From positions 31,901 through 95,900 of the IMG/VR virus record IMGVR_UViG_3300010163_003659: a stretch of DNA of 64,000 nucleotides. One strand, 5' to 3'. The translations under genes and the position numbers were made by a program. Origin of the DNA: a virus. Its lineage: Duplodnaviria > Caudoviricetes. Of this stretch, positions 12,920-29,375 are shown in pieces. Below the pieces are notes generated by a model. The model was not told where the DNA came from. It was given only the letters and a program-made list of their open reading frames with translations, and did not search any database. Position 1 is the stretch's first letter; each line of letters begins with the position of its first letter.

Positions 12920-13774
12920 ATGTCGAATGAAAAGATTGTTGAGCAGATACAGCAGGGCATTAATGTGACAGCCAATCAGGAAAAGCTCTGGGAGCAAAAT
13001 AAGGGTTTTGTGGTACAGTGTATCAGAAAGTATGTAGGCGGGTGTGATGGGCAGGATTTTAAGGATTTCCTACAGGAAGGTTTTATAGGCTTGATAGATG
13101 CAGCCCGCCTATTTGATGCCGGGCATGGGGTGAAATTTTTGACTTATGCAGAGTACAGTATACGGAGAGCCGTATACCGTTATAATGGCATGAATACCTA
13201 TATGGTGTGTGTCCCGGAGTATCTTAAGGCGAGAATGAGGAAGTTGGCCGCATTCAGGCAGAAATATCGGGAAGAACACCACAGGAACCCGGAACCGGAA
13301 GAAATACTGAACGCTTTACACATTTCTTACCGTTCCCTCTGCCATCTGGAGAAAACCATAATGAACATAAGCACCAGGAGTCTTGATGAGTACATATCGG
13401 AGGATGGGAATACCAAACTGGCCGACCTGCTCTCAACAGATGAAAAGATTGACGAGCTGGCCGGAGGAAGTGAGTACCAAAGGGAGCTGCATGAGGAACT
13501 GGAAGCGGCACTTTCCATTTTGGATAATAAAACTGCCATGATGATACGGTGTGCATATTACCAGGGGAACAATTACACCAAGACCGCTGAAATATTTGGG
13601 TGCAGCAGGCAGGCGGTTGATGAACGCATAAAGAAAGGCTTTTATAAGATACTCCATTCAAGGCATAGGAAAAGGCTGGAAAGCTTCATGTGGGAGGGAT
13701 ACCATGTAGATTCCCGGCGCCTGAAGGACTATGTGGAGGAAATTGACAATATAAGCAGTGATTTTTTGTTATAA
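12920..13774 (+). CDS. Sigma-70 family RNA polymerase sigma factor
   Basis: Region 2 DFLQEGFIGLIDAARLFD..KFLTYAEYSIR; region 3 SLDEYI; region 4 HTH. Confidence 0.85.
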   Translation: MSNEKIVEQIQQGINVTANQEKLWEQNKGFVVQCIRKYVGGCDGQDFKDFLQEGFIGLIDAARLFDAGHGVKFLTYAEYSIRRAVYRYNGMNTYMVCVPEYLKARMRKLAAFRQKYREEHHRNPEPEEILNALHISYRSLCHLEKTIMNISTRSLDEYISEDGNTKLADLLSTDEKIDELAGGSEYQRELHEELEAALSILDNKTAMMIRCAYYQGNNYTKTAEIFGCSRQAVDERIKKGFYKILHSRHRKRLESFMWEGYHVDSRRLKDYVEEIDNISSDFLL

Positions 13775-13779
13775 GGCAG

Positions 13780-14601
13780 GTGGATGGGCATATGCCATAT
13801 TTTTATGATTATTTTGCTAAGGAATACAGGGACAGGCATAAGGAGGGGCTGTTTCCTGCCCCTGCTGCCATGTTCCGGGATATTAGGCAGGATGTGCAGG
13901 GATGCAGGCGGGTCTTAAAAAGTGCTTTTACCGGCTATCGTGAGGGCAGGAATACAGAAGTATTGAAAATGTTGTTTATGGAATACCGGGAATATATTGC
14001 AGGGCTGAATGATATGCAGGCAAAAGACAGATGTAATGCTTTTGCTTACCAGTATATGGTAGAGACATATGCTGGCAGCAGGGCGATAGCCACAAAGCTG
14101 GGGGTTGTGAAGGATACTGTATGGAATTACATCAACAGATGCATTGATGAAATGCTGATACTCTGCATGGGAATACCGGCAGCAGTTGAAGGTCCTGAAG
14201 GCAAAGAAAAGATTGTCCGGATGCTGGCAGGGGGTTGCAGGCTTCTACGGAATATGGCAGGGGAATATGTCCTGCTGCTCTTCCCGGGCAGGAGGCAGAA
14301 CCGGGCAGTAGAATGGGGCAGAGAGATAACAGGAGATGTTCTGCAGCAATTTGCGGGGGCTGTGGAGGCATACCTAGACTATTGCAGGGATGGACACACC
14401 CGCATTGATACTGACATCCGGAAGGCGTGGGTTCTGGAAAGGTGCATTGACGGAATTAGCCCTGCTGCCATTGCTGAAGAATATGGATGTTGTGAAAGCA
14501 CAATCTATGCAGATATTCGGGAGAATGATAGACGGCTTGCGGCCATGCTGTTTGATATGGAAAGAGATACTGCAAGCAACGGAAAAGTAAGGATAAATTG
14601 A
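13780..14601 (+). CDS. Protein with two sigma-region-4-like HTH motifs
   Basis: IATKLGVVKDTVWNYI and IAEEYGCCESTIYADI. Confidence 0.55.
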   Translation: MDGHMPYFYDYFAKEYRDRHKEGLFPAPAAMFRDIRQDVQGCRRVLKSAFTGYREGRNTEVLKMLFMEYREYIAGLNDMQAKDRCNAFAYQYMVETYAGSRAIATKLGVVKDTVWNYINRCIDEMLILCMGIPAAVEGPEGKEKIVRMLAGGCRLLRNMAGEYVLLLFPGRRQNRAVEWGREITGDVLQQFAGAVEAYLDYCRDGHTRIDTDIRKAWVLERCIDGISPAAIAEEYGCCESTIYADIRENDRRLAAMLFDMERDTASNGKVRIN

Positions 14602-14815
14602 TGCCAGAGAAGAATAGGGGAATAGATTTTTACTCAAAAATGAGTAAAGCAGACAGCAGTGGGAAAACGTCAACGGATTATGACATTTCTTTGGACATGT
14701 CAAAGCAGATTTGTATGATACAGAGGATGTCGGAGGGGAAACAGTGTCGGCAGTACCTTATCGACTTGGAGAAGGCATGAAATACACTGGAGCAGGTTAT
14801 GGCAAGGGAAGGGGA
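14598..14815 (+). pseudogene. AntA/AntB antirepressor remnant
   Basis: DMSKQICMIQR..GKQCRQYLIDLEKA*NTLEQVMAR: TGA where the family has Trp. Confidence 0.7.
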
Positions 14816-14824
14816 ATCTAAAGT

Positions 14825-15580
14825 ATGGAACAGTTGATCATGATTGAAAACGAGATGGTACCAGTATATACTACCAGCACAGGTGAGAAGGTAGTATATG
14901 GAACAGAGCTTCATCGAGTTTTAGAGGTAAAAAGCAATTATCGGGAATGGGCAAGCAGACGTTTTTTGGATATTGGAGCGGTGCAGCAGGAAGACTTCGA
15001 AAGCGTCGAAATTCCGACACTGGCAGGCGGCACTCCGAGGAAAGAGCATATTATCCGGTTGGATACCGCCAAAGAAATGGCTATGCTGGAGAGGAATGAG
15101 AAAGGAAAGCAGATCAGACGGTATTTTATTCAAGTTGAAAAGAAATATAGGGGCAGCAGTTCTGGGATGATTCCGAAAGGCAGGCAGCTGATGGCATTGG
15201 CGGTGATGGAGGCACAGAAGATTATTGCGGAACAGGAGCAGGTCATCTGTAGAATGAAGCCTAAGGAAGTTTTTGCTGATGCGGTGTCTGCATCCGACAG
15301 CTCCATCCTAATTGGGGAACTCGCCAAGATACTCCGGCAGAATGGGATTGCCACCGGGGAAAAGAGGTTATTTAGCTGGATGCGGCAGCAGGGCTATTTG
15401 ATACGCAGGAAAGGCATAGATTATAATATGCCGACGCAACGGAGCATGGAGATGGAACTCTTTGAGATAAGGGAGCGGACTATCAACAATCCGGGCGGGA
15501 GTATCCGGATAACAAAGACTGTGCTTGTGACAGGCAAAGGGCAGCAGTATTTCATTAATAAATTTTTGGATGAGGATTAG
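14825..15580 (+). CDS. Phage antirepressor (AntA/AntB + KilAC)
   Basis: ELHRVLEVKS..LDTAKEMAMLERNEKGKQIRRYFI; KPKEVFADAV..VTGKGQQYFINKF. Confidence 0.9.
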   Translation: MEQLIMIENEMVPVYTTSTGEKVVYGTELHRVLEVKSNYREWASRRFLDIGAVQQEDFESVEIPTLAGGTPRKEHIIRLDTAKEMAMLERNEKGKQIRRYFIQVEKKYRGSSSGMIPKGRQLMALAVMEAQKIIAEQEQVICRMKPKEVFADAVSASDSSILIGELAKILRQNGIATGEKRLFSWMRQQGYLIRRKGIDYNMPTQRSMEMELFEIRERTINNPGGSIRITKTVLVTGKGQQYFINKFLDED

Positions 15581-15625
15581 TATACAGTTATTTCTTATAT
15601 GCAGCAAATAAAGTTCTCAATATGG

Positions 15626-15654
15626 TTGACAAAAAAGCTGACAAATTGTAAAAT
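15626..15654 (+). promoter_or_regulatory. Sigma-A promoter TTGACA-N17-TAAAAT
   Basis: Near-consensus, upstream of 15685. Confidence 0.7.
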
Positions 15655-15684
15655 TAGCTCATATCTAAAAATGATTGGAGGAAA

Positions 15685-16320
15685 ATGATGGGAGCATTTG
15701 GTAAAGATTTGTTAACCCAACACGAGATGATAACCTTGGCATCAATTGTACAGGTTGGAGATGCTACTTACTTTGATTTGCTAGAGGCAGAAAGACCGAT
15801 GTTTGCGCATCCGTATTTCACTGATTTGAAGGGAAGAGTACGGACGAAACTTGTACAGATGCAGTGTGAGATGGAGCACTATGACGGCAAGTTCCCATTT
15901 GCGTTTTCTGAACGGGAATTTTGCTATGGGCATAAAGTGCCAGAATTAAGGAATAAGTATATGATAATCCATTTTGCACAAAGTAATTCGCCGACTTCCC
16001 TTCCAAGCAAGGCTGATTACAAATGTGAATTGACATTTAACAATGATTCGTTGTACCGTCAAATGAGATTTGACTTTTTAGGAGAACAAAAATATGTTAA
16101 AGAGCCATATTATGGCATTTTGGTTTTCGGAGGCCGGCAGGGAAAGACATTTTGCCGTTTACAGTTTCCGGAGCCGGGATACAGGGCTATTGCAGATTAC
16201 ATTGATATACCTATGATGAGTTTGGTGCCTGAAAAGGAGGAAACAAAGAAATTTGAAAGGAAAAAGGCGATACTGAGGGAGGAATTTCTAGCTCATAATG
16301 TCAGGGAAGAAGTATTATGA
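15685..16320 (+). CDS. Hypothetical protein, candidate toxin partner of downstream HTH-peptidase
   Basis: ATGA overlap with next gene; no motif recognised. Confidence 0.6.
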   Translation: MMGAFGKDLLTQHEMITLASIVQVGDATYFDLLEAERPMFAHPYFTDLKGRVRTKLVQMQCEMEHYDGKFPFAFSEREFCYGHKVPELRNKYMIIHFAQSNSPTSLPSKADYKCELTFNNDSLYRQMRFDFLGEQKYVKEPYYGILVFGGRQGKTFCRLQFPEPGYRAIADYIDIPMMSLVPEKEETKKFERKKAILREEFLAHNVREEVL

Positions 16321-17474
16321 AAAATAGTGTCATTCCAAGCCGCATAACAGAGGCACGTGAGGCTTGTGCATTGTCAATGGGGGATTTGGCAGAAAGAATA
16401 GGGGTTACGAGGCAGTCTGTTTCAAAATATGAAAGAGGAATTATGAGCCCTTCACTTGATGTCTTACAGTCAATTTCAGTTTTATTGCATTTCCCGGTTG
16501 ATTTTTTTTATAAAGAAGAGCTGGGAATAAGCACAGGAACAAGCCCGTTATTTTTTCGTTCTAAATCCAATATTTCCAAAAAAGTAAAGATGGCATGTAA
16601 GCACCAGGTAAAATGGGTTTGTGAGATAAGAAAACAGTTGGAAAGATATGTTAAATTTGTTGACCAGAACACTCTTGTAGTTGATGTGGATTATGAGAAT
16701 CTGCAGGATAGTGACATTGAAGAAATAGCTCTGTCGGTAAGACATGAGTGGGAACTTGGTGATGCTCCTATAGATGATTTGATAGGTATTTTAGAGAATC
16801 AGGGGATAATTGTAGCCCAATTTTCGGGAAATGATTTCTGCTCCTTTAATGGAATTGATGCGTATTCCTCATGGTATGGCGGAATACCTTATATAATTTA
16901 CAATTCAATGCAGAAAAGTGCTGTCCGTACAAGGTTTAGTATTCTTCATGAGTTGGGGCATTTAATTTTTCACAGTTCTGTTTCAGAAGAAGATGCAGTA
17001 AAAAAAGAAGTTGTTGATTTTGCAGATATGCAGGCAGACAGATTTGCAGCAGCTTTTCTTTTGCCGTCCACCTCTTTCCCGAAAGATGTAAGGGGAACCT
17101 CTTTGGCTTATTTAGAGATAATCAAAAAGAAATGGGGAGCTGCAATGTCTACCATAATCAGGCGTTGCGAGACATTAGACCTTTTGACGGATAATCAAAT
17201 CGGGTATTTGAAAAGGCAAATGACAACAAACAAGTATTGGCATAAGGAGCCCCTGGATGATGTGCTGCAGATTGAGCCGCCGGAGATGTTACGTGATGCG
17301 GTTTATCTGTTGATAGATAACAATATAATCACAAAACATACTTTTTTGGACTTATGTGCTTTGCCACCAAAGGATTTACAGTGCATATGCTCATTGCCGG
17401 ATGGCTTTTTTGGCAGTCCCCTGCAGAAGCAAAAACCTGTTTTAAGAGTGGTGAGGGAGGGGGAAGATTTTTGA
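16317..17474 (+). CDS. XRE HTH + ImmA/IrrE (peptidase M78) protein
   Basis: N-terminal XRE HTH; RTRFSILHELGH; ADRFAAAFLLP. Confidence 0.9.
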   Translation: MKNSVIPSRITEAREACALSMGDLAERIGVTRQSVSKYERGIMSPSLDVLQSISVLLHFPVDFFYKEELGISTGTSPLFFRSKSNISKKVKMACKHQVKWVCEIRKQLERYVKFVDQNTLVVDVDYENLQDSDIEEIALSVRHEWELGDAPIDDLIGILENQGIIVAQFSGNDFCSFNGIDAYSSWYGGIPYIIYNSMQKSAVRTRFSILHELGHLIFHSSVSEEDAVKKEVVDFADMQADRFAAAFLLPSTSFPKDVRGTSLAYLEIIKKKWGAAMSTIIRRCETLDLLTDNQIGYLKRQMTTNKYWHKEPLDDVLQIEPPEMLRDAVYLLIDNNIITKHTFLDLCALPPKDLQCICSLPDGFFGSPLQKQKPVLRVVREGEDF

Positions 17475-18479
17475 GATGTAATTTGTTTGGAAGTTGCAAT
17501 AAAGGCAAACGGCATAGAAATTAAAGTTATAGGGAATAATATATTGATTAATAGAGGCAGCACTTTCAATGTGAAGCCGGGCACTGCAAGTGTCTGGCTT
17601 TTTTGCGTACAGGGGGGGTGTCTGCAAGGGAAAGCCTACAGGGCAGACAGCGTTTTTTGTGTGTGAGGAAAGCGAACGTTCGCTTAATTACAAAACAATG
17701 GCACATGGCGGTAAGGATACTGTAAACCTGCTGTTTATGGTATCCCGCCCATATTGCTGTGCCTTTTTAAAAAGCGAACGTTCGGTTTGCCCCATACAGA
17801 AAAACGGGCGGGGATTTACCGCAGCGTTGCATTTTCCGCAGAAGGAAAACGAATCACAGGTGGAGCGGTTTGCCAGTGCAAGAAGGTGGCGCAGGTGGAA
17901 CGGCCGAAAGCTCCCCACGGAAGCAAAAACAAATGATTGCAACGTTGCAAAAGCCTGAGGGGAGTCTGTGGCACACGCAGAGGCTTCATTTTGCCGCTCT
18001 AATGGCCGGAATGATAAGAATTGCCCTTCAGCATTGCAAAGGGGCTGTATGGGCAAAATAGGCGGTGCGTGGGGTGGGGCTGCTGCCGTGCAATATTGTG
18101 GCAGGGGATAGGAGGGGCAACAGGAAGAATTTCATGGGGACAGGATGCACAGCGTCAAGGTGTGGGCGGGATAGGATACCATCTGCCCCATCATAGGCGA
18201 GGGGAGTGTATTGAAAGGGTTTGGGATAGCCTGGGGATGCCAGCGCTGCAGTGAAGGGATCCTGCTGCCGTCAGAGACATAACCAGAGACAGAGACATAG
18301 GCATAACCGTATGGCCTTCAGATTGCCCGAAATTCGGTTGAAATTATTTTAGACAATAATTTTATCGTTGAGAGAATAAAATGAGCATGGCGGCCAAAAT
18401 AGAAGGCGAACAGAACTATATCAAACTTGAAGCAGTTAGGACAACAGGTTCTGCTTATAGGAACATAGGAATTTTTTAG

Positions 18480-18508
18480 TTGCGTATGGGACTAACTAAT
18501 ACTATAAT
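18480..18508 (+). promoter_or_regulatory. Promoter TTGCGT-N17-TATAAT for TIR-NLR operon
   Basis: Exact 17-bp spacing; same hexamers precede second module. Confidence 0.7.
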
Positions 18509-18566
18509 AGTGGTAGATAACAAATGACAAGGGAGGACAAAAGATGGAAATACGGAGGTGGAATTT

Positions 18567-19220
18567 ATGGGACAAAGAGTTAAAAACGAACTAAATAATG
18601 TCTCGATTGGAGGCAGCTATATTGGCAGGAGTAGTATAGTTAATAATTATTATATTCATCAGGCAGAAACAGGAACAGAAGGGAGCAGGGATGACAAAAC
18701 AATATTCATTTCCTATAACTGGCATGATGGGAAGATTGCAGACAGGATTGACAGGCATCTGTCAGGGCTTCCAAGTGTAACTGTAAAAAGGGATGTGCGT
18801 GACATTGGCCCATGGAAAAGCATCCGAGAGTTTATGGAAGGCATCCGGCAGCAGGATTATGCGGTTTTCATTGTCAGCGATTCTTATCTGAAATCAAAAA
18901 ATTGTATGTTTGAGGTTACAGAAATGATGAAAGAACAGGAGTATGCGGACAGAATTTTCCCGGCCGTTGTGGAAACCGACATATATGATCCGTTGGTACG
19001 TGCCAGATACATAAGTTACTGGCAGCAGGAATGTGATAAGCTGGAGGCTGCTGTAAAGGGGCTGGATCCGGCCAATGCAGTTGAGCTGGCAGCAGATTTG
19101 AAATGTTATAAAAATATTGCATCTTCTGTAGGGGAGTTTTTAAGCATAGTTGCAGACAGGAACAATCCGGATATCCATGAGGTAGAGGTACAGATAGAGA
19201 AAGCATTACTGAAGAACTGA
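18567..19220 (+). CDS. TIR-domain protein with N-terminal N/G-rich motif
   Basis: IFISYNWHD, SDSYLKSKNCMFE (catalytic-type Glu), RIFPAV; GGAGGTG RBS before ATG 18567. Confidence 0.88.
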   Translation: MGQRVKNELNNVSIGGSYIGRSSIVNNYYIHQAETGTEGSRDDKTIFISYNWHDGKIADRIDRHLSGLPSVTVKRDVRDIGPWKSIREFMEGIRQQDYAVFIVSDSYLKSKNCMFEVTEMMKEQEYADRIFPAVVETDIYDPLVRARYISYWQQECDKLEAAVKGLDPANAVELAADLKCYKNIASSVGEFLSIVADRNNPDIHEVEVQIEKALLKN

Positions 19221-19239
19221 CTGATAAGGGGGAATTACT

Positions 19240-21621
19240 ATGGATCAGAGAATAAATAATCACTTTAAGGGTGGTAACATAGAAGGCGATTATGTAGGGG
19301 GGAATCAGACAAAAAACTACTATATATCCATGTTTCAAGATTTAGAGCGAGAGTTTGTTGTTACACATAATGCCGATATCAAGCCAGTGTCCTATTTTAC
19401 TGGACGAGAAACAGAGCTGCAGGAGTTGCGCCAGCGGCTAGAGGAAGGGCGCAAGTCTGTTCTAGTAAGCGGGATGGGTGGCATTGGAAAAACACATATC
19501 TGCCGGAAGCTGTTTGAGGAATACACCAAAAAACATGCTGATGGTGAGGATATACCTTTCTGCCATATTGGATATGTTGAGTATAATGGGGATATGGGCA
19601 GCAGTCTGCAAACCTGTTTAAAATTTAAGGAGCAGGACGATTCGGGGCAGAATCAAGAAGCGGCATGGAGAGAACTGGAATATCTAGCGGCAGGTGGGAA
19701 ACTTCTGCTGTTTGTGGATAATGTAGACAAGCCTGTAAACGCTGATCCAGGATTGCAGAGGCTAAAGGGGATTCCCGGAGCGGTTATTTTGACATCTCGG
19801 CAGGCTTCTTTTAGTGATGAATTTGAACCATACCCGATAGGTTTCCTTGATATGGAGCAGTGTAAAGAGATTTATGAGAAAATCCGGTTTAAGGGCAGTA
19901 AGAGAAAAGTCAGACTGGAGGAAGAACAGGATTTGAAATATGTCATAGAGGATTTGGCTGGGAGGCATACCATTACAGTTGAACTTCTGGCGCATTTGGC
20001 ACGTACAAAAACATGGACAGTGAAAAGGCTTAGAGAAGAGTTGGGGCAAAAAGGGTTCTGTCTGGCATTTCATAAGAACGGGAAACTTGTCAATATCCAA
20101 AAATCTTATGAAGTGCTTTATGATTTGTCCAAACTGACAGAAGCAGAGCAAAACATTCTGGAGGCTTTTTCAATATTTCCGTATATTTCTTTGGAGGCAG
20201 AGATATGTAATCAATGGCTGCTTGCGGATGCTGGAGTAAGTGAAGAAGATGATATCTTAATGGGATTATATCAGAAAGGTTGGCTGCAGTTTGATATAGA
20301 GCAGGGAAGCTATGCTATGCATCCTGTGTTTGCGAAATTTATTTATGAAAGATGTAAGCCAAAATTGGAAGGGCATCGTGGATTGATAGAGGGATGTCAG
20401 AAGTGTTTGGAAATACCAGAAAGCGGTTCTGTTATGGAGTGCCAGCATTTTATTCCTTTTGCAGAGAATATTTTGAAAAAAATCAGCATGGAAAATGAAA
20501 TAGAACATGTTCAGTTTATGGACATATTGGCATATTCACTACAACATACAAGGGAGTATGCAAAAGCAGAAGTATTATACGAAAAGATTTTACAGATTAG
20601 AAAGAAATTGTATGGACAAAAACATCCAGATACAGCTACCGGTTATAATAATTTAGCAGCTGCATATGCTGAACAGGAAAAGGATAAAGAAGCGAAAAAA
20701 TTGTATAAAAAAGCTTTGTTGATAAGAGAGAAAGTGTTAGGGGAGGAGCATCCAGATACAGCTGACAGTTATAATAATTTGGCAGGGGTTTATTCCAAGC
20801 AGGGGAAGTGCTGGAAAGCAGAGGGACTACATAAAAGAGCCTTGTTGATAAGAGAGAAAGTGTTAGGGGAGGAGCATCCAGATACAGCTGACAGTTATAA
20901 TAATTTGGCAGTGATATATGCTGAACAAGAAAAGTACAGGAAAGCAGAAAGGTTCTGTAAAAGAGCCTTGTTGATAAGAGAGAAAGTGTTAGGGGGGGAG
21001 CATCTAGAGACAGCTAATAGTTATAATAATTTGGCAAGGATATATGCTGGTCAAGAGAAATATAAGGAAGCAGAAGAACTGCATAAAAAAGCCTTGTCGG
21101 TAAGAGAGAGGGTGTTGGGAGAGGATTATCCAGATATAGCTTATAGTTATGATAGTCTTGCAGAGATAAATGAGATTCGAGAGAAGTATAAAGAAGCAGA
21201 AGAATTATATAGAAAAAGCCTACAAATAAGAATGAAAGTGCTAGGGGAAGAATATCCAGATACAGTCATGAGTTATCTCAACTTGGCAAGTGTGTTGAGT
21301 GAACAAGGAAAGTATGGGAAAGCAGAAGAGTTGTATAAAAAGGGTATACAGATAGGTGAAAGCGTTATGGGAAAAGAACATTCATATACAGCTATAGGTT
21401 ATAATAATTTGGCAGGAGTATATATAGAACAAGGAAAGATTGACAGGGCAATAATATATTATCATAAGGCTTATCAAGTTTTTGTGAACAAATTTGGAAG
21501 AGATGATCCAGATACACAAGTTGTATATGGAAATTTGGAAGCGATATACAGAGCATATAATCCAGAAGGCAATTTTGAACAGTGGCTGGAAGAAAAGATG
21601 AAAGAAGCAGATTTGGATTAA
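19240..21621 (+). CDS. STAND/NB-ARC ATPase + ~8 TPR repeats (NLR-like protein 1)
   Basis: FTGRETEL, GMGGIGKT, LLFVDN, ILTSR, MHP; 42-aa TPRs (LGEEHPDTA.SYNNLA). Confidence 0.92.
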   Translation: MDQRINNHFKGGNIEGDYVGGNQTKNYYISMFQDLEREFVVTHNADIKPVSYFTGRETELQELRQRLEEGRKSVLVSGMGGIGKTHICRKLFEEYTKKHADGEDIPFCHIGYVEYNGDMGSSLQTCLKFKEQDDSGQNQEAAWRELEYLAAGGKLLLFVDNVDKPVNADPGLQRLKGIPGAVILTSRQASFSDEFEPYPIGFLDMEQCKEIYEKIRFKGSKRKVRLEEEQDLKYVIEDLAGRHTITVELLAHLARTKTWTVKRLREELGQKGFCLAFHKNGKLVNIQKSYEVLYDLSKLTEAEQNILEAFSIFPYISLEAEICNQWLLADAGVSEEDDILMGLYQKGWLQFDIEQGSYAMHPVFAKFIYERCKPKLEGHRGLIEGCQKCLEIPESGSVMECQHFIPFAENILKKISMENEIEHVQFMDILAYSLQHTREYAKAEVLYEKILQIRKKLYGQKHPDTATGYNNLAAAYAEQEKDKEAKKLYKKALLIREKVLGEEHPDTADSYNNLAGVYSKQGKCWKAEGLHKRALLIREKVLGEEHPDTADSYNNLAVIYAEQEKYRKAERFCKRALLIREKVLGGEHLETANSYNNLARIYAGQEKYKEAEELHKKALSVRERVLGEDYPDIAYSYDSLAEINEIREKYKEAEELYRKSLQIRMKVLGEEYPDTVMSYLNLASVLSEQGKYGKAEELYKKGIQIGESVMGKEHSYTAIGYNNLAGVYIEQGKIDRAIIYYHKAYQVFVNKFGRDDPDTQVVYGNLEAIYRAYNPEGNFEQWLEEKMKEADLD
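20716..21037 (+). repeat. 126-bp near-identical TPR-coding tandem repeats
   Basis: Units at 20716, 20842, 20968; 70 bp identical between first two. Confidence 0.85.
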
Positions 21622-21825
21622 GTCATAGGCACGATATTGGCTAATGGTAATGGATGCACTGATTCTGCTGCCGTACAGCAGTAGATATTGTTATGTTGAA
21701 ATAGTGGAATTTATGCAGGACCTTAGTGATGAGGAACTGGAGACATTGAACAGGCAAGTAAATCAGGCGATGGAGCATGTTCGCATCGTTTACAAATGAA
21801 ACAAAATGTGGAAGGGGAATGTACC

Positions 21826-22422
21826 ATGAAGAGAGAAACAACTCCGATCAGAGTGACGGATAAGATTATGGAATTATGCAGCGGGATAGTACCGGATGCG
21901 AAACCGGAATATGTTTCGGTTAAAGTGCAGGAATGGAGCAGACCAATGGAATGTTTTCCCAATGTGGAGCGTATGGTTCAAGAGCAGGGCGGGCAGCAGA
22001 TTAATGGTTGGGCAATCTGGCAATGGGCGAATATCCTTGTAGAGGCCGAGGCTCATTCTGTGTGGCAAAGTCCGAAAGGGGAACTGATGGATATTACCCC
22101 TCATGACAATGGGGAAAGGGAAATCCTATTCCTGCATGATGCTGGCATGGTGTATTCCGGGCAGAGCATTGGAAATGTAAGGCTTGCCATCACCGGATCA
22201 CCGCTGGCTGCTGAAATGGTCGATCTCGGCGATAAGATAGATGCGGTCATGTGCAGTTACAAGCCAGGAACGGAAATTCCACTTTGGGAGCTACGGCGCC
22301 GACTGCTGCCACTAAAGGAGCAGAGGGAGGCAATCGTGGGGATGTTGAACCAGAAAGCCAGCAGGAATGCCCCTTGCCCATGCCAGTCTGGATTAAAGTA
22401 CAAGAAATGCTGTGGGAGGTAA
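21826..22422 (+). CDS. SEC-C motif protein
   Basis: C-terminal RNAPCPCQSGLKYKKCCG; N-terminal CFPNV..H..DITP. Confidence 0.8.
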   Translation: MKRETTPIRVTDKIMELCSGIVPDAKPEYVSVKVQEWSRPMECFPNVERMVQEQGGQQINGWAIWQWANILVEAEAHSVWQSPKGELMDITPHDNGEREILFLHDAGMVYSGQSIGNVRLAITGSPLAAEMVDLGDKIDAVMCSYKPGTEIPLWELRRRLLPLKEQREAIVGMLNQKASRNAPCPCQSGLKYKKCCGR

Positions 22423-22425
22423 GTT

Positions 22426-23007
22426 ATGATATTTGATGTTATTTTCAGCATCCTTTCAACAGTTATTAGTTCAACTTCTCTTATATTTATTAAAGAGGTT
22501 TTTGACAGAAAGCAGAACCATCAGGAAAATAAAGAAATCCAAGAAGATGCTGAGAAGATTATTGGAGATACATTTAAAAGTGATGATGTAATTGACTTGA
22601 TGCTAAAAAATGTTCGTGAATTGAGAGAGTATTACATAATCAGCAAAAGACAGGCAACAAATGCGTTTTCTGCTTCACTGATAGTCTGCTTTTTGGGTTT
22701 TATTGTTTATATTGCGGGTATCGCTGTATTTGTTATTTCTGGAGAAAATGCATTACTGTTAACTACCATATCAGGAACAATAGTGGAAGTAATTTCCGGA
22801 TTATTTTTCTGGCTTTATAGACATGCAATTAAGCAGTTAAATATTTATCATCAGAGATTAGGTACAACAGAGAAGTATCTGACAGCAATTCGTTTAGTGG
22901 ATAAAATGGGACAGGATAAGCATGATGATATGTACAAGCATATTATTGAATGTGTTTTAATAGATAATCGTATGCAATCAAATGAGGAAAATGAAAAAGA
23001 GCAGTAA
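22426..23007 (+). CDS. Membrane protein, TRADD-N-associated 2TM-like
   Basis: YY..KRQA..F..S followed by two TM helices ending ISGLFFWLY. Confidence 0.6.
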   Translation: MIFDVIFSILSTVISSTSLIFIKEVFDRKQNHQENKEIQEDAEKIIGDTFKSDDVIDLMLKNVRELREYYIISKRQATNAFSASLIVCFLGFIVYIAGIAVFVISGENALLLTTISGTIVEVISGLFFWLYRHAIKQLNIYHQRLGTTEKYLTAIRLVDKMGQDKHDDMYKHIIECVLIDNRMQSNEENEKEQ

Positions 23008-23174
23008 GAAGGAATATGTTCTCTAATCTGCAGAGTGTTTCAAATCCGTCCGAAAAGGCTTTTGGCGATTAATTTAACTGTTGAGAGGGGAAAAGAGGAA
23101 TATGGAGCAAATTAGAGGGTATAGGGAGCGTGTTGTACATTAGACAGCAGGCTCTTTCTTTATGAGATTTAAAG

Positions 23175-23203
23175 TTGCGTAAGCATTAAACCAATATTAT
23201 AAT
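23175..23203 (+). promoter_or_regulatory. Promoter TTGCGT-N17-TATAAT for second effector-NLR operon
   Basis: Same hexamers and spacing as 18480-18508. Confidence 0.7.
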
Positions 23204-23218
23204 AAAGACAGATAAAGG

Positions 23219-23461
23219 ATGATAGGGGGAATGGTGGAAATGATGGAAGTGTTTAATGTTATTAGTGGAGTATGTTCCATTGTTGGACTGTCTGTTTCTC
23301 TTTTTACGGCCAGCAAGGTGATTAAAATAACGCAGAACATTAACAGTGGCAATGTAGATGACCATTCAAAGGTTGTTAATGGAGGCAAAGGCAATACATA
23401 TAATGGGCCATATGCAGGGAGGGATTATACGAATGAGACGAGAAGTGGACAACAGAAATAA
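23219..23461 (+). CDS. Single-TM micro-protein with C-terminal N/G-rich GPYAGRD motif (start may be 23240/23243)
   Basis: Hydrophobic VFNVISGVCSIVGLSVSLF; tail shares motif with NLR2 N-terminus. Confidence 0.75.
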   Translation: MIGGMVEMMEVFNVISGVCSIVGLSVSLFTASKVIKITQNINSGNVDDHSKVVNGGKGNTYNGPYAGRDYTNETRSGQQK

Positions 23462-25820
23462 AGACAGCAATTTCTATGGGCCATATGCTGGCAGGGATAT
23501 GAATGTTACCAATATCATAATGCTTCAAGATTCAGAGCGTGAATTTGTCGTTACGCACAATGCTGATATTAAGCCAGTGTCATATTTCACAGGCAGGGAA
23601 ACGGAACTGGAAGAACTGCGTCAGAGGATAGATGAGGGACGCAAGTCGGTTCTGGTGAGTGGCATGGGCGGTATTGGTAAGACTCATATCTGCAGGAAGT
23701 TGTTTGAAGAGTACACCAATAAACATGCGAAAGGTGAAAATATACCTTTCTGCCATATTGGATATATTGAGTACAATGGGGACATGGGCAGCAGTTTACA
23801 GAACTGTCTAAAATTTAAGGAACAGGATAACCCAGAACAGAACCAGGCGGCAGCGTGGAAAGAATTAGAATATTTGGCAGCAGACGGGAAACTGTTGCTG
23901 TTTGTTGACAATGTGAATGTGTCGGTGAGGGAGGATGCAGGGCTGGAAAGGCTGAAACAGATTCCTGGAGCAGTGGTGCTGACTTCCAGAAGGACATCTT
24001 TCGGCAAGGAGTTTGAACCGTACAGGATTGGTTTTTTGAGTACAGAGCAATGCATAATGGTTTATGAGAAAATCCGGTATGAGAATAGCAGCAAGAAAGT
24101 GCCGGAAGAAGAGATACTGGATTTAGAATATATCATAGAGAATATGGCAGCAGGACATACCATTACCATTGAATTTTTTGCACATTTAGCCGAAACAAAG
24201 CAATGGAGTATAAAAAGGCTGCGTGAGGAACTGGACAGCAAAGGGTTTCGGTTGGAATACAAGGATGAAGAGGACAAGTTGATAAATATTCAGGAAGAAT
24301 ATGAAAAGTTGTATGATTTGTCTGTTCTGACAGAGGCGGAAGGGAACATACTGGAGGCGTTTTCTGTATTTCCGTATATTCCTTTATCTGCGGAAATTTG
24401 TAATCAATGGTTGCTTTTTGATGCGGGGGCAAGTGAAGATGATGATATTCTGATGGGACTGTATCAAAAAGGGTGGTTGCAGTTTGATGTGGAGCAGGAG
24501 AGCTATGCTATGCATCCAGTATTTGCAAAGTTTATTGATGAGAGGAAGAAACCAAAATTTGAAGAGCATCGTGGATTGATAGAGGTATGTCAAAAGTGTT
24601 TGGAAATACCAGAAAACGGCTCTGCTTTGGATTGTCAAAGATATATTCCGTTTGCAGAAAATATTATAAAAAAGATAGATATGAAATCAAGTATAAAGGA
24701 AGCAAGATTTATAACAGAACTTGCTTATTTGTTGCAATATATAGCAGAGCATGAAAAAGCGGAGGAATTGTATGAAAAAAGTTTGAGAATACAGGAAAGA
24801 GTGCTGGGGGAAGAACATTCAGATACCGTTGCGATCTATAATAATCTGGCATATGTATATAATTGCCAAGGAGAGTACAAAAGATCGAAAGAGCTATATG
24901 AAAAGAGTCTGTGGATAAGGGAAAAAGTGTTTGGAGAGAAACATCCAGCTATGGCATACGATTATAATAATTTGGCAATGATGTATGAGAGGCAAGGGAG
25001 ATATAGGGAGTCAGAGGACTCGGTTGTTGATAATATGGAGAATGAAGGAAGTGCAAGAAAAAGAGAAAGACGAAGAAAAGGAAATATTTTTGGAAATGTA
25101 CTATCAATAATTTCTTTGGTAATTAGTTTATTATCGTTATTGATATCTTACAGGACTATCCAATTAGAAGAAGTGGAATATCAACCGCATTTTATTTGTA
25201 CTACAAAAAATAATGAGGAATATAAAAAACCTGAAAGTTTCTATTTTAAGATTCACACGATTAAAAATATTGGAGTGCCGATATCTAACGTGGAATTTGA
25301 TATACAAGAAGTTTTATGTTTTCAAAGGGCTTTAACCAGTGAAAGTATGGATGTGTTGATTTGGAAAAAAACAGATATTCTAAACGAGGATAAAGATATT
25401 AAATACGATTTAGATAAACAAGAAATTGTAATTGAAGGAATCCGTTTAGAATATATAGAATATATGCTTAATAGCTATTTTAACAGTGATAGCAATATTT
25501 TTTTTTATGAGCCATATCGCATTAAAGTATATAATGTGACTTGTAAAAGAATCTTAAATATACAGTATACAAATAGGGAGGGCGTAAACTGTAGGGAATG
25601 TTATGAGTTAAAAGAAAATCATATTTCTCTTTTAGACAAAATTGTGAAACGTGAAGATTATAACGAAATAGTTGATTTTATACATGGAAGTAAGTATGAA
25701 TTAGGGGAGGTGTATCAAGATAATATGGAACAAGCACAAGATATGATAACTAATATGTTGGGAATTAATATAGAAAGAGAGAAAGAGGAGTTAGCAAAAC
25801 AATATAACAAGAAAGATTAA
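23433..25820 (+). CDS. STAND/NB-ARC + short TPR array fused to TM-anchored C-terminal domain (NLR-like protein 2)
   Basis: Paralogue of NLR1 from QDxEREFVVTHNADIKPVSYFTGRETEL onward; RBS GGGAGG before ATG 23433. Confidence 0.88.
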   Translation: MRREVDNRNKDSNFYGPYAGRDMNVTNIIMLQDSEREFVVTHNADIKPVSYFTGRETELEELRQRIDEGRKSVLVSGMGGIGKTHICRKLFEEYTNKHAKGENIPFCHIGYIEYNGDMGSSLQNCLKFKEQDNPEQNQAAAWKELEYLAADGKLLLFVDNVNVSVREDAGLERLKQIPGAVVLTSRRTSFGKEFEPYRIGFLSTEQCIMVYEKIRYENSSKKVPEEEILDLEYIIENMAAGHTITIEFFAHLAETKQWSIKRLREELDSKGFRLEYKDEEDKLINIQEEYEKLYDLSVLTEAEGNILEAFSVFPYIPLSAEICNQWLLFDAGASEDDDILMGLYQKGWLQFDVEQESYAMHPVFAKFIDERKKPKFEEHRGLIEVCQKCLEIPENGSALDCQRYIPFAENIIKKIDMKSSIKEARFITELAYLLQYIAEHEKAEELYEKSLRIQERVLGEEHSDTVAIYNNLAYVYNCQGEYKRSKELYEKSLWIREKVFGEKHPAMAYDYNNLAMMYERQGRYRESEDSVVDNMENEGSARKRERRRKGNIFGNVLSIISLVISLLSLLISYRTIQLEEVEYQPHFICTTKNNEEYKKPESFYFKIHTIKNIGVPISNVEFDIQEVLCFQRALTSESMDVLIWKKTDILNEDKDIKYDLDKQEIVIEGIRLEYIEYMLNSYFNSDSNIFFYEPYRIKVYNVTCKRILNIQYTNREGVNCRECYELKENHISLLDKIVKREDYNEIVDFIHGSKYELGEVYQDNMEQAQDMITNMLGINIEREKEELAKQYNKKD

Positions 25821-25927: not shown

Positions 25928-26491
25928 TTAAATATTCAGCAAATCGGCAATTTCCGAGAAGTTGATAAGCAGATCATCATAGATATTGACCTTGATTGTG
26001 GAATCAAAGGAGTACTGGATGTTTAGCATATTTTCCTCGAAGTAGTTGACGGTTACTGTTTTGCGGCGCGGATCTACAATCCAATACTCACGCACTCCAT
26101 AATTTTTGTAGTAGTAGAGTTTGCGGACATAATCATCTGCTGGATTACTGGGAGAAATAATTTCAATGATAAAATCTGGAGCACCGTTGCACCGTTTTCC
26201 GTCTAACTTGTCTTTATCACATACAATCATGAGGTCAGGTTGGACAATGGTAAGTGGAGTATCATTCAATTTTACATCAAATGGGGCATGAAATACCCGG
26301 CATGGCCCATTTTTGCTTTTGAGATAGGTGTTGAGCATAGTCGAAAGTTCCATGGAGATTGTCTGGTGATCCTGGGACGGACTGGCCATATCAAAGACAA
26401 TACCATCAAATACTTCTACCCTTTTTTCCTCTGGAAGAGCTTCATACTGTTCTAGGGTGATTGTTTCCGGCTGTGGTTGTAATGCTGGCAT
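25928..26491 (-). CDS. Uma2 family endonuclease
   Basis: MASPS..HQ, VQPDLMIVCD, GAPDFIIEIISPS, GVREYWIVDP. Confidence 0.92.
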   Translation of the reverse strand: MPALQPQPETITLEQYEALPEEKRVEVFDGIVFDMASPSQDHQTISMELSTMLNTYLKSKNGPCRVFHAPFDVKLNDTPLTIVQPDLMIVCDKDKLDGKRCNGAPDFIIEIISPSNPADDYVRKLYYYKNYGVREYWIVDPRRKTVTVNYFEENMLNIQYSFDSTIKVNIYDDLLINFSEIADLLNI

Positions 26492-26619
26492 AGTATCACT
26501 TCCTTTCTGGTTATTGTTTGTGTGTGGTTATAAGCGGTGTATTCATATGCTGGCAGTTGCGGTCATATGGGTACAACTGCTGCCGCATGGTGGAGAATTG
26601 TTGTCAAGTGGCAGCAGGA

Positions 26620-27474
26620 CTAATAACAAGCCTCATAAAAACGGTTGTTGCGTATGCCCTCCGACATGAAATGGCAGATATTATAATCACAGTTATCATA
26701 CTGTGTTTTGAAATGCTGTGATATCAATGCCTTATACATATCCGGATCAGTGCCATCAACCAGCTCAGAGCCAGAGTAGATAGCTTCTATGACGCTGTCC
26801 ATTGCCGAGCTTGACAGGCGAGGATGTTCCTTGTGAAATGTTGCCATATACAGTGAGTAGTAGTACTCAATGATTGTAATATAGTCGGAATGCTCTGTAA
26901 TACCCTGCTTGTGGCATGATTTGATTATCTGTTTCTCCAATATGGATGAATTAAAAGGCGTAGTTGTGCTTAATGTGTGAAACTGTTTTAGTTCTGTGCC
27001 ATTTAAACTTTTAATGTTCTCTGTAGTAGTATCTGTGTAGTCTATGGTATTGGCCTGTTCATTTTGAACAGTTCCATAGTGCCAATCTGAACAGACGATG
27101 TGTTCATTTTGAACAGACGAGGAAAAGAGACTATTTAACGCATTATAGTTAATTGTGTACCATTTTGTTTTATCAAATCCAGCCCTATTGTAATTTCCGG
27201 CAATTAGCAGCCCCTTGTTTTCAAGTTTGGTCATGGTGCGCCGGATAGTCATAATGGACCAGAACGGAAACTGCTCTTGCCACTGATCATAGGTATTATA
27301 TACCCAGTAATGCCCGTCAATGTAGTCCTGTCCGGTTTTCTCCTTGTGCTTCAGCCAATAATGCACTTGCTGTAGTATGATGGCTTCGTTTAGCCCAATC
27401 AGCGTTGCCAATGTCGGCATGACTTGTAATGGGTGTTCATCTAATAATAAATTGCTAATGGCTGTTACCTCCAT
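26620..27474 (-). CDS. Phage-type replication initiator (wHTH)
   Basis: LIGLNEAIILQQVHYW, WVYNTY..W..QFPFWS..TIRR, DKTKWYTINY; internal repeats. Confidence 0.75.
   Translation of the reverse strand: MEVTAISNLLLDEHPLQVMPTLATLIGLNEAIILQQVHYWLKHKEKTGQDYIDGHYWVYNTYDQWQEQFPFWSIMTIRRTMTKLENKGLLIAGNYNRAGFDKTKWYTINYNALNSLFSSSVQNEHIVCSDWHYGTVQNEQANTIDYTDTTTENIKSLNGTELKQFHTLSTTTPFNSSILEKQIIKSCHKQGITEHSDYITIIEYYYSLYMATFHKEHPRLSSSAMDSVIEAIYSGSELVDGTDPDMYKALISQHFKTQYDNCDYNICHFMSEGIRNNRFYEACY
27055..27120. repeat. Iteron-like repeats inside rep gene (TGTTCATTTTGAACAG / TGAACAGACGA)
   Basis: Copies at 27056, 27088, 27101. Confidence 0.7.
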
Positions 27475-27498
27475 TCTGTGTATTTGGACATATGTTAC

Positions 27499-27717
27499 CT
27501 ATTTTTCGGCACTGTCAGCAGGAACATACTCCATAATGTCTTCTGGTTGACAGTTAAGGGCTTCACATATATTGCTTAATACTTCTGTTGTAACAGTTTC
27601 ACCCTTCGATAATTTGGCAAGTGTAGGAGAAGAAATGATTTTGTTATTTAATAAATCAGTTTTTTTCATTCCTTTGCGTGTCAATAAATCGAAAAGTTTA
27701 TAGTACTTCATACTCAT
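27499..27717 (-). CDS. Cro/C1-type HTH repressor
   Basis: ISSPTLAKLSKGETV..ICEALNCQPEDIMEY. Confidence 0.88.
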   Translation of the reverse strand: MSMKYYKLFDLLTRKGMKKTDLLNNKIISSPTLAKLSKGETVTTEVLSNICEALNCQPEDIMEYVPADSAEK

Positions 27718-27737
27718 TGTACCACCTCCTTGTATTT

Positions 27738-27834
27738 AGTATACACTAAAATTATATAAGCGTCAATTAAAAATATATTAGCGAAAGCTATTGACAAAGT
27801 GATTAACGCATGCTAATATAATTTTAGCGAAAGC
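27738..27834. promoter_or_regulatory. Back-to-back promoters with TTAGCGAAAGC operator-like repeats
   Basis: Minus TTGACG-N17-TATACT; plus TTGACA-N17-TAATAT with TGn; repeats at 27778 and 27824. Confidence 0.75.
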
Positions 27835-27906
27835 GAAACAAAAGGAAAAGAACGCTAAAGGTCAAACGGAAGTAAATGTGGGTACCGAAAAGAAAGGAGT
27901 GATTCC

Positions 27907-28341
27907 ATGAAAAACATTACAACAATCCGCCGGACAGTAGCAACCATGGCGAACCAGTTACACAAGCTGGGGTATTCCCTATCTCAGGCATTCAAAACCG
28001 CATGGAAGCGTATCAAAGAATCCATGACCTGCAGGGTATCCGGTGTCACATACGACAAGCGTCAGGAGCTTCTACAGTTCATTGCCAGCAGGAAACCGGA
28101 AGAGCTGACGGTATACCTGCAGCGTGACAGGGCAAACACCTATGACAGGTTCGCAGTTGCGGTAGTTATCGGCATTAAGGACATAGGGTATGGACATATA
28201 GGGTATCTGCCAAAGGGGCTGTCCCAGGGCATGGCGGCAGTCATAGACAAGGGGATACAGGTCAAGGCCACGCTGGTACAGGTTATCGGGGGCTACAGCT
28301 ATAAGGAAACCCTCGGCGCACTGGTAAATATCGCAGTATGA
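27907..28341 (+). CDS. HIRAN domain protein
   Basis: VSGVTY..RQ, LQRDRANTYDRFAVAV, HIGYLP. Confidence 0.85.
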   Translation: MKNITTIRRTVATMANQLHKLGYSLSQAFKTAWKRIKESMTCRVSGVTYDKRQELLQFIASRKPEELTVYLQRDRANTYDRFAVAVVIGIKDIGYGHIGYLPKGLSQGMAAVIDKGIQVKATLVQVIGGYSYKETLGALVNIAV

Positions 28342-28352
28342 AGGAGGAGAAG

Positions 28353-28487
28353 ATGGATTATCAGGCATTAACGGTTGAGGACTGCATCAGTAAACTGGAG
28401 CAGGAAGGGATGGCAGCAGTCATTGAGGATGGAGCCGTTACAGGCTTCGTAGAAGAAAAGAGCCCTTACCAGAGGTCGCAACTCTGA
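28353..28487 (+). CDS. 44-aa hypothetical protein (not in ORF track)
   Basis: AGGAGG RBS; MDYQALTVEDC... Confidence 0.5.
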   Translation: MDYQALTVEDCISKLEQEGMAAVIEDGAVTGFVEEKSPYQRSQL

Positions 28488-28591
28488 TAAAGGCAGGTAA
28501 CCCGTCAACCAAGCAAATCGGGGTATGCAGGCAGTATAACACGACTGCTGCCGCCCTGTCAAAGAAATTAAGGAATATGGAGGTAAGAATA

Positions 28592-28984
28592 ATGCAGGGT
28601 AACACAATAACGCATACTGATACTGCCTGCCAGGTGGTGGACATCAGTGGTTTTAAAGGATGCAGGAAGGAGATGGTGGAAGACTGGCTGAGAAAGAAAA
28701 TGTCAGAAACGTATGGTGATGATTCAGAATGCATACTGGGCAATCCGCTCCTCAGAATTTCCACGAAGTTTACAGCGCTAAGCCATAGTGCGCAGCATAA
28801 GCTTTATGGTTATGCCGAGAGGGTTATTATGGCCCAGGGGAACGAACTGACACTGAAAGACAAGCTGTGGGATGTTTTGGAAAAGGGAGGAAGGGACGGT
28901 TCATGGGAGACCATAGAAAAATATGCTGATACACTACTGGCAAAGGAAAAGGCATGGAAGCAGGGGAATGGAGGTTTGGTTTAG
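28592..28984 (+). CDS. Hypothetical protein
   Basis: GGAGGT RBS; operon context. Confidence 0.55.
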   Translation: MQGNTITHTDTACQVVDISGFKGCRKEMVEDWLRKKMSETYGDDSECILGNPLLRISTKFTALSHSAQHKLYGYAERVIMAQGNELTLKDKLWDVLEKGGRDGSWETIEKYADTLLAKEKAWKQGNGGLV

Positions 28985-28985
28985 G

Positions 28986-29309
28986 ATGGAACAGGATGTA
29001 ATTAAGGCAAAGGCGGACAGGGAATGTGAAATTTTAAGAAGAAAGCAGAGGGAAAGTCTTGAATCAGACCTGATTAAGGAAATCTATTACATGGTGAATG
29101 AAGACAGGAATGAAACTGCCGGCGAAATGCAGGCAGACATGAAGCTGGAGGAAGCGCTGGAAGCATTTGAAAATGGCACTCCTGCAGGCAATATCATTGA
29201 CTTGGCAAGTGAGTGCAGTGCGGAGGCAAGGGAAGCAGGTTTCAAGATGGGATTCCGTGTAGCCATGAAACTCTGCATGGAGGGAATGAAAGGGGGTGCT
29301 GTCTTGTGA
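28986..29309 (+). CDS. Hypothetical protein
   Basis: GGAGG RBS; C-terminal GFKMGFRVAMKL. Confidence 0.55.
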   Translation: MEQDVIKAKADRECEILRRKQRESLESDLIKEIYYMVNEDRNETAGEMQADMKLEEALEAFENGTPAGNIIDLASECSAEAREAGFKMGFRVAMKLCMEGMKGGAVL

Positions 29310-29375
29310 CAGCCCTTACGGCAGAATGGCTTAAGGAATTGCAGTTGGATTTGGTAAAAATATAGCAGGAGATAT

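Follow-up and report, generated by a model that had tools for sequence, protein, structure and literature searches.

A TIR gene and an NLR gene with a shared N-terminal tag

The window analysed here is a 64,000-nucleotide (nt) stretch of IMG/VR virus record IMGVR_UViG_3300010163_003659 (positions 31,901 to 95,900; Duplodnaviria, Caudoviricetes), and our subject is a pair of neighbouring genes within it, one encoding a small TIR-domain protein (hereafter TIR) and the other NLR1, an NB-ARC/TPR STAND NTPase. Both genes lie on the same strand, the NLR1 start codon (ATG at 19240) following 19 nt past the TIR stop codon, and both proteins begin with a related stretch of 29 residues, which we call the tag (Table 1).

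The TIR reading frame starts at the ATG at 18567 (MGQ...), 6-7 nt 5' of which lies GGAGGTGG, a predicted ribosome-binding site; the listed open reading frame (ORF) can be extended to a GTG at 18558, and the homologues begin at the same methionine as the ATG at 18567. The protein has a TIR fold: Pfam TIR_2 matched residues 46-158 (E 6e-17; 62.7 bits against a cut-off of 28), and the best Foldseek matches of its AlphaFold2 model were the plant TIRs L6 (E 9.5e-4), RPP1 and RUN1 and the bacterial TIRs BtpA, PdTIR and AbTir. More than 100 homologues of about 217 amino acids (aa) were found at 69-93% identity, a few of which carry source names, namely metagenome-assembled genomes labelled Lachnospiraceae, Eubacterium sp. 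or Bacilli. A preliminary description of this DNA had stated that TIR keeps a catalytic-type glutamate in the motif C-M-F-E, and the comparison agrees, with Glu116 invariant in a 16-sequence alignment reaching down to 69% identity and the same glutamate present in the divergent TIRs P0269 and P0278. The residue falls within helix 111-122 of the AlphaFold2 model, after the third strand (98-103). From the conserved context S-x-x-Y-x-x-S-x-x-C-x-x-E we infer that it corresponds to the catalytic glutamate of characterised TIR NADases (SARM1 E642, RUN1 E100), and we regard TIR as a candidate NADase effector.

For NLR1, Pfam reports NB-ARC (E 1.5e-9), AAA_16 and 7 or 8 TPR_12/TPR_10 repeats, and a Walker A motif, G-M-G-G-I-G-K-T, occupies residues 78-85. 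Against the models of PADLOC-DB 2.0 the two proteins gave partial, weak matches only (TIR to SAVED-TIR at 1.5e-6 and to spbK at 5e-4, NLR1 to generic TPR), and no single system catalogued there, with models such as Avs, Thoeris ThsB and SpbK, was significantly matched by both. The pair therefore lies outside the defence systems that these models catalogue.

The TIR tag comprises about 28-29 residues with the consensus M-G-Q-x-I-x-N-x-L-x-x-V-x-I-G-G-x-Y-x-G-G-N-S-x-V-N-x-Y-Y and is kept in 112 of 119 homologues with an intact start. A hidden Markov model (HMM) was built from 100 non-redundant TIR N-termini, leaving out the window's own, and searched against all 1454 open segments that the window has in its six frames. 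Only two segments matched, TIR itself (54.5 bits, E 4.5e-16) and, over residues 1-29, NLR1 (27 bits, E 1.8e-7), the next-best segment standing at E 0.56. When the NLR1 N-terminus was shuffled with its composition kept, none of 20,000 shuffles scored above 13.9 bits, compared with 32.4 bits for the real peptide. The likeness of the two tags is thus far beyond chance. Only 47 of the 87 bases (~54%) are common to the two tag-coding stretches, suggesting that the likeness has been kept at the protein level and does not stem from a recent duplication. In the joint alignment, N7, L9, G16, Y18, G20 and G21 are near-invariant in the tags of both proteins. The N-termini quoted in the preliminary description, with 8 of 20 ungapped identities, were found as given; the shared NYYI that it added does match after one gap, but it is not part of the conserved core, the NxYY tail being missing from some TIRs (L063).

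Table 1. Positions of the TIR-NLR1 pair and of the second module in the window
Feature	Position	Strand	Details
TIR effector gene	18567..19220	+	217 aa; ORF and translation, Pfam TIR_2, homologues, AlphaFold2 model and Foldseek
TIR N-terminal tag	18567..18653	+	residues 1-29; conserved in homologues, Gly/Asn-rich
Variable charged linker between tag and TIR domain	18654..18698	+	residues 30-44; weakly conserved and length-variable (16-sequence alignment); low predicted local distance difference test score (pLDDT)
Codon of Glu116 (C-M-F-E), candidate catalytic glutamate	18912..18914	+	invariant in 16-sequence alignment
NLR1, NB-ARC/TPR STAND NTPase	19240..21621	+	793 aa; Pfam domains, 524 homologues
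NLR1 N-terminal tag, class A	19240..19326	+	residues 1-29; matched by TIR-tag profile, E 1.8e-7
Tag/NB-ARC junction M-F-Q-D-x-E-R-E-F-V-V-T-H, cassette exchange site	19327..19365	+	conserved; all tag classes converge there
Terminator-like hairpin 3' of NLR1	21664..21685	+	consensus match only, weak evidence
SEC-C-motif protein, second module	21796-22422		
CyanoTRADDas_TM two-helix membrane protein, second module	22426-23007		193 aa
One-helix protein, second module	23219-23461		80 aa; C-terminal tail G-P-Y-A-G-R-D
NLR2	23358-25820		class-B/C tag

Tag classes track the effector type

To place the pair among its relatives, 75 loci were compared, drawn from collections of genomes, metagenomes, viruses and assemblies. 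The first ~30 residues of the 524 NLR1 homologues fall into discrete classes, and the rest of the protein is conserved, with at least 70% identity from the junction Q-D-S-E-R-E-F-V-V-T-H onward. Class A, to which NLR1 belongs, resembles the TIR tag (D-Y-V-G-G-N-Q-T-x-N-Y-Y), while classes B, C and D are built on G-x-Y-(A/V)-G-(R/H)-D. Scores with the TIR-tag profile are 22-45 bits for class A and 0-24 bits for the other classes. A TIR-family gene adjoins the class-A NLR in 10 of 10 distinct loci (the window, L001, L040, L043/L055, L056-58, L059, L061, L063, L067 and L069). The gene order is reversed in L067, with the class-A NLR still beside the TIR gene, and a more divergent TIR/class-A NLR pair with overlapping genes occurs in L073. 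Each NLR of class B, C or D is preceded and overlapped by the gene of a 61-96 aa protein with one N-terminal hydrophobic helix and a matching C-terminal motif, and the 26 distinct loci with such small membrane effectors show no exception to the class pairing. Counting distinct NLR sequences for which both class and effector labels were resolved, the tally is 9 of class A with TIR, 26 of classes B-D with a membrane effector, and no mixed combination. Within the membrane-effector loci the effector tails also co-vary with their NLR tags (p 0.002).

Several variants of these arrangements were observed. The most abundant TIR variant, P0110, is listed in 254 collection blocks of the index, mouse-gut samples included; at P0110-type loci (L067:53-5289 and L068) the order is NLR, then TIR, and directly after it a membrane-anchored Metallophos phosphoesterase, which may be a third component or an unrelated neighbour. 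The one-helix effectors (window 23219-23310; L002-L046) start with M-(D/E)-L-F-N-I-I-C-G-V-C-S, placing an acidic residue at position 2, before the hydrophobic helix, and an acidic residue in such a place is a reported feature of the pore-type effectors Bell, HeLo and Bab. L065:4130-7089 carries a TIR gene, a degenerate NLR with stop codons in its tag region and a second TIR-like start fused into a longer ORF, a tandem that represents module decay and duplication. Among the longer proteins no TIR-NB-ARC-TPR fusion of this subfamily was found, a negative of little weight, and only rare, deletion-like fusions appeared: P0283 (484 aa) joins a truncated class-C NLR directly to a TIR domain that has no TIR tag, and in P0281 (419 aa) a tagged TIR continues into the final TPR units of an NLR. 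Both stand alone in their clusters and are probably deletion products.

Effector and tag move as one cassette

On the NB-ARC tree (a quick-search tree, as were all trees here, with support from the Shimodaira-Hasegawa-like approximate likelihood ratio test, SH-aLRT, only) the class-A NLRs are scattered and do not form one clade; well-supported branches require the class to have changed at least 5 times among 78 proteins, and the effector at least 3 times among the loci. The clearest case is L001, a locus of the TIR type that is nested within L004/L027, of the membrane-effector type, with 100% SH-aLRT. Between L001:5001-5110 and L004:4989-5100 the DNA identity rises from ~40% to ~97% within ~30 nt, at the end of the tag-coding segment, so that the two loci are ~97% identical downstream of the tag/NB-ARC junction and unrelated upstream of it. 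This breakpoint, together with the nesting in the tree, gives clear evidence that the effector gene and the NLR tag move as one unit onto near-identical sensors, exchanged as a cassette at a fixed junction.

The preliminary description had proposed that the shared tag couples a free TIR to the NLR in trans. Conservation of the tag in both partners, the tracking of tag class with effector and the movement of the two as a cassette all speak for this proposal, and coupling of the TIR effector to its NLR through the tag is, at the level of comparative sequence evidence, strongly supported.

Composition and predicted structure of the tag

The TIR tag contains 18.8% Gly and 16.1% Asn, each at about four times its share in the TIR body, and 9.2% Tyr, has no Pro or Trp, and is also rich in Val and Ile; Leu is present at 0.53 times its share in the TIR body, and Lys is not depleted. 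The AlphaFold2 monomer of TIR gives residues 1-40, which include the tag, a pLDDT below 50, and the tag is accordingly disordered in this model. In its disorder, the variable linker behind it and its composition, the tag agrees with published descriptions of BASS motifs. A joint profile of 21 TIR and NLR tags, searched against 1.84 billion representative proteins, matched 42, among them more TIRs with an N-terminal tag, NLR fragments and membrane proteins of 83-101 aa that carry the tag twice in tandem at the C-terminus, as pseudorepeats. Both pseudorepeats of such a double-repeat membrane protein were predicted by AlphaFold2 to adopt the same strand-turn-strand-turn-strand pattern (pLDDT 70-83). 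Foldseek returned nothing significant for this model (best E 3.9), and the amyloid entries for HET-s (2RNM, 2LBU) and HELLF (6EKA), at E 8-10 and probability 0.01-0.02, do not constitute evidence; with VIA-align, representative chains reached Z 2.8 at most, the matches being mainly single helices. For the double-repeat protein, then, neither Foldseek nor VIA-align provided a structural match that supports an amyloid fold of the tag.

The same tag was also seen in operons of a DUF2326 ABC/SMC-like ATPase (ABC-3C or Lamassu-like), at L071:260-3269, at L074:2167-4249 and in the operons of P0280. There it occurs as two C-terminal pseudorepeats on membrane proteins of 82-101 aa, at the N-terminus of proteins in which a membrane helix comes next (P0267, P0275), and close to the N-terminus in the CTD11-domain protein P0280, whose 101-aa neighbour may be a second tag carrier in the operon. 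The tag may couple components in the DUF2326 system too.

Relation to known signalling pairs

The closest parallels are the pairs of a Bell-domain effector and an NLR that share a bacterial amyloid signalling sequence, or BASS (Dyrka et al. 2020, bioRxiv 10.1101/2020.01.06.895854; dataset PMC8086366). Those pairs have adjacent or overlapping genes, an NB-ARC/TPR NLR with a motif of ~25-30 residues directly 5' of the NOD domain, and the same motif on the effector's terminal tail; BASS motifs favour Gly, Asn, Gln, Val and Ile over Pro and Leu and have β propensity. The locus described here shares these traits: effector and NLR are separate, adjacent genes (19 nt apart; 10 distinct loci and L073), the N-terminal motif of the NLR is similar to the effector motif, and the tag has a matching composition, with abundant Gly and Asn, no Pro and reduced Leu, β strands being predicted for the motif repeats of relatives. 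The position of the effector motif differs. The searches that defined the BASS families addressed C-terminal effector motifs (Dyrka et al. 2020), whereas TIR carries its motif at residues 1-29 and not at the C-terminus, in keeping with the earlier remark that an N-terminal tag on the effector is unusual. The classical BASS layout is seen in the sister module, whose one-helix membrane protein carries its motif at the C-terminus. TIR_2 is already listed among the rare or occasional BASS-linked effectors in 10.1101/2020.01.06.895854. Two further differences lie in the hosts, which here are unicellular gut Lachnospiraceae (Bacillota), a phylum in which NLR architectures are rare or absent according to Dyrka et al. 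2020, and in the carriage of the modules on phage-like DNA, integrative and conjugative elements (ICE) and defence islands. Relative to that work, the N-terminal TIR tag, the unicellular Bacillota hosts, the carriage on mobile elements and the exchange of effector plus tag at a fixed junction set the present modules apart.

There is some resemblance at the level of the motif itself. An effector with two pseudorepeats facing an NLR with a single one is also what HET-s and the BASS1 and BASS6 effectors show (Dyrka et al. 2020, 10.1101/2020.01.06.895854). The BASS1 core reads R-V-Y-Q-A-G-R-D-Q-H-I-T-E-R, with variants A-G-R-D-L-N-V, A-G-R-D-M-N-V-T and Q-V-G-G-N-Q-T-I (PMC8086366, supplement file 43), and the tag core Y-(A/V)-G-(R/G)-(D/N) resembles its V-Y-Q-A-G-R-D-Q-H-I, with the same alternation of G-R-D and G-G-N; by eye, the runs A-G-R-D-M-N-V-T and V-G-G-N-Q-T are exactly common to both. 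Scored against the profile of the G-R-D classes, the BASS1 consensus core reached 9.7 bits, a value attained by 2 of 3000 shuffles, and the G-G-N variants reached 9.6 and 6.0 bits against the class-A profile (attained by 2 and 7 of 3000 shuffles). Across all the short BASS1 peptides the scores were 6-10.5 bits (0-8 of 3000 shuffles), four of the five peptides having been picked for their resemblance, and the likeness to BASS1 is on this basis suggestive.

A second parallel is Bab/Agp, the BASS11 abortive-infection system of Escherichia coli prophages, which was shown experimentally (Ibarlosa et al. 2024, bioRxiv 10.1101/2024.11.07.622273). Like the TIR-NLR1 pair, it is a two-gene module, there an antiphage one from prophage hotspots, and its sensor, which bears an amyloid motif at the N-terminus, switches on a small effector with the same motif; BASS11 is also found with TIR, NB-ARC and NACHT domains (10.1101/2024.11.07.622273). 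Unlike NLR1, the Bab/Agp sensor is a TPR-GreA/B-PIN protein and not an NLR, and its effector is pore-forming and Bell-like with a C-terminal motif; the key BASS11 positions (I87-G88-S89-V90, Q92 and D99-N100), compared by description only, are spaced unlike the tag of TIR and NLR1. In the fungal amyloid signalosomes (NWD2/HET-S, PNT1/HELLP and the sigma and PP motifs) an N-terminal NLR motif likewise templates the motif of the effector; the effectors may have two pseudorepeats, like the double-repeat membrane proteins matched by the joint tag profile, and enzymatic effectors (SesB lipase, PNP_UDP) exist as well. These systems differ from ours in being eukaryotic, in the C-terminal position of the effector motif and in that no sequence relationship is shown.

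TIR domains with the conserved glutamate become active once an oligomerising scaffold gathers them, as in the RPP1 and ROQ1 resistosomes, SARM1, TIR-SAVED, TIR-STING and AbTir filaments; compared with all-in-one TIR-NLRs, TIR is here a separate polypeptide. A literature search found no paper on this TIR/NLR family and none that joins 'amyloid signaling' and Lachnospiraceae in a relevant sense.

Genomic setting and a second module in the window

The TIR-NLR1 module belongs to an element that is phage-like or mobile in some other way and whose host is a gut Lachnospiraceae bacterium. Genes for a phage-type sigma factor, an antirepressor and an HTH/ImmA-like regulator lie 5' of the NLR modules (window 12920-17474), and genes for a Uma2 nuclease, a DnaD-like replication initiator and an integrase lie 3' of them (25928-31283), followed further downstream by portal and tape-measure genes and a second integrase (62442-63542). 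Related modules elsewhere stand beside a TraG/VirD4 coupling protein and an integrase (ICE-like), beside HicB and YafQ toxin-antitoxin genes, or on IMG/VR contigs. Such a setting is typical of mobile defence cargo.

Downstream of NLR1, positions 21796-25820 hold a second module with an NLR of the same family, giving the window one TIR-type and one membrane-effector-type module. The 80-aa one-helix protein ends in a tail that matches the N-terminus of NLR2, and the two genes overlap; the 193-aa two-helix protein recurs 5' of the small effector in many loci (L010-L018, L024, L025, L045). NLR2 itself has only 2 or 3 TPR units, followed in frame by a basic stretch, a hydrophobic helix and ~220 aa that find no Pfam match (window 24740-25820). 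Because its homologues elsewhere have full TPR arrays, the NLR2 of the window may be a deletion fusion.

The hairpin 3' of NLR1 is the sole terminator-like site in 18200-23500, where 2.7 would be expected by chance, and the 20 promoter-like sites in the region (shuffle mean 13.9, standard deviation 4.3) show no clear enrichment. The promoter TTGCGT-N17-TATAAT named in the preliminary description does not pass a consensus scan, its −35 hexamer agreeing at 3 of 6 positions.

A proposed signalling route and its alternatives

Taken together, we consider it probable that TIR and NLR1 form a two-gene immune module, namely a BASS-type (amyloid-like) NLR-effector pair with a TIR NADase as its effector. 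NLR1 would be the sensor, its TPR repeats binding a ligand, presumably phage-derived, and its NB-ARC domain driving nucleotide-dependent oligomerisation, which would gather several N-terminal tags. These tags could then take up a stacked, amyloid-like fold of β-arches that recruits and templates the same tag on the free TIR, held by its flexible linker. Clustering of the TIR domains would assemble the NADase site around Glu116, and NAD+ would be degraded or made into a signal, so that the infection is aborted. The tag would in this way stand in for a covalent TIR-NLR fusion. The amyloid-like contact, the direction of signalling, the NADase chemistry, the trigger and the antiphage role are argued by analogy; for the amyloid-like mode, the enzymology and the trigger the analogy is with the families involved, that is, with BASS pairs, Bab/Agp and assembly-activated TIR enzymes.

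Several observations weigh against this proposal or parts of it. Physical linkage by itself accounts for the joint transfer of the effector gene with the adjacent NLR 5' end, and of linkage and likeness only the similarity of the tag sequences argues for an interaction; linkage nevertheless does not explain why one peptide is encoded at either end of the cassette, and this points to a functional contact between the tags. No pair-private co-variation of TIR and NLR tags was detected within class A (permutation p 0.77). The likeness to BASS1 is weak and spans just 8-10 residues, and of the five test peptides four had been chosen as similar-looking. The AlphaFold2 monomer of TIR, a TIR core with a helical C-terminal extension, is of moderate confidence (mean pLDDT 66.5), and the TIR profile found no match at E ≤0.01 among Protein Data Bank sequences.

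The main rival of the amyloid-like mechanism is that the tag serves for discrete docking of a non-amyloid kind: a single TIR tag would join a single NLR tag by β-strand addition in a fixed complex, before or after activation, with no open-ended polymerisation, and in one variant the complex would form before activation, the NLR keeping TIR inactive. All the comparative evidence for coupling fits docking equally well, and the lack of pair-private co-variation is compatible with a simple conserved interface. Both tags are moreover N-terminal, as are the homotypic effector-associated adaptor domains of bacterial STAND systems that Kaur, Burroughs, Iyer and Aravind reportedly described in 2020. 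A stable globular interface is, however, hardly to be expected of a 28-residue peptide that is 19% Gly and 16% Asn, lacks a hydrophobic core and is disordered in the monomer model; the tandem pseudorepeats with predicted β structure are typical of stacking β-arch motifs, and the core of the tag resembles BASS1, a motif reported to form prions. On balance we think docking unlikely, if still worth serious attention.

Two further explanations do away with contact between the tags altogether. The tag might act separately on each protein, as a degradation or localisation signal or as the site of a common third factor, and its presence on proteins of the DUF2326 ABC-ATPase operons does show that it is not limited to NLR pairs. 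Yet even in those operons the tag may sit on two proteins of one operon (P0280 and its 101-aa neighbour), and the tag class switches with the effector type on nearly identical NLR bodies. The window, too, holds two classes side by side, each matching its own effector, which speaks for pairwise specificity more than for a common factor; separate action seems quite improbable. Far less credible still is that the tags are alike by chance, as low-complexity N-termini, or as the functionless relic of a local duplication. Both peptides are indeed compositionally biased and their raw identity is modest (8 of 20), but the profile match at E 1.8e-7 was approached by none of the 20,000 shuffles, the coding DNA is only ~54% identical, and more than 100 TIRs, with every partner NLR, retain the tag in settings that include ICE, prophage-like DNA and toxin-antitoxin islands. 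The profile and shuffle test, the pairing at the loci and the table of classes and effectors effectively refute an origin of this kind.

Implications

It is tempting to go one step beyond the amyloid-like TIR-NLR1 pair and to see the family as a plug-and-play chassis, a possibility that we put forward tentatively and with somewhat more doubt than belief. One NB-ARC/TPR body would accept exchangeable cassettes of effector and amyloid tag, the tag being N-terminal on a TIR and C-terminal on a pore-type membrane peptide; non-matching classes would avoid cross-talk between tandem modules, and TIR would be a NADase switched on by templating from its N-terminus. If this is true, the TIR module is a NAD-degrading enzyme under N-terminal amyloid templating. 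Amyloid-type signalling between NLR and effector is established in fungi, and for bacteria one preprint reports experimental evidence, with a pore-forming effector (10.1101/2024.11.07.622273). The present locus, compact with its two genes and common across gut metagenomes, is a system in which to ask whether the amyloid principle controls an enzyme and whether a tag can act from the N-terminal end. Near-identical sensors with naturally swapped cassettes provide a ready-made specificity experiment, and the swaps show mobile elements diversifying their immune outputs by recombining an effector with its address tag. The locus thereby extends NLR/BASS-type systems to unicellular Bacillota and to the cargo of phages, ICE and defence islands.

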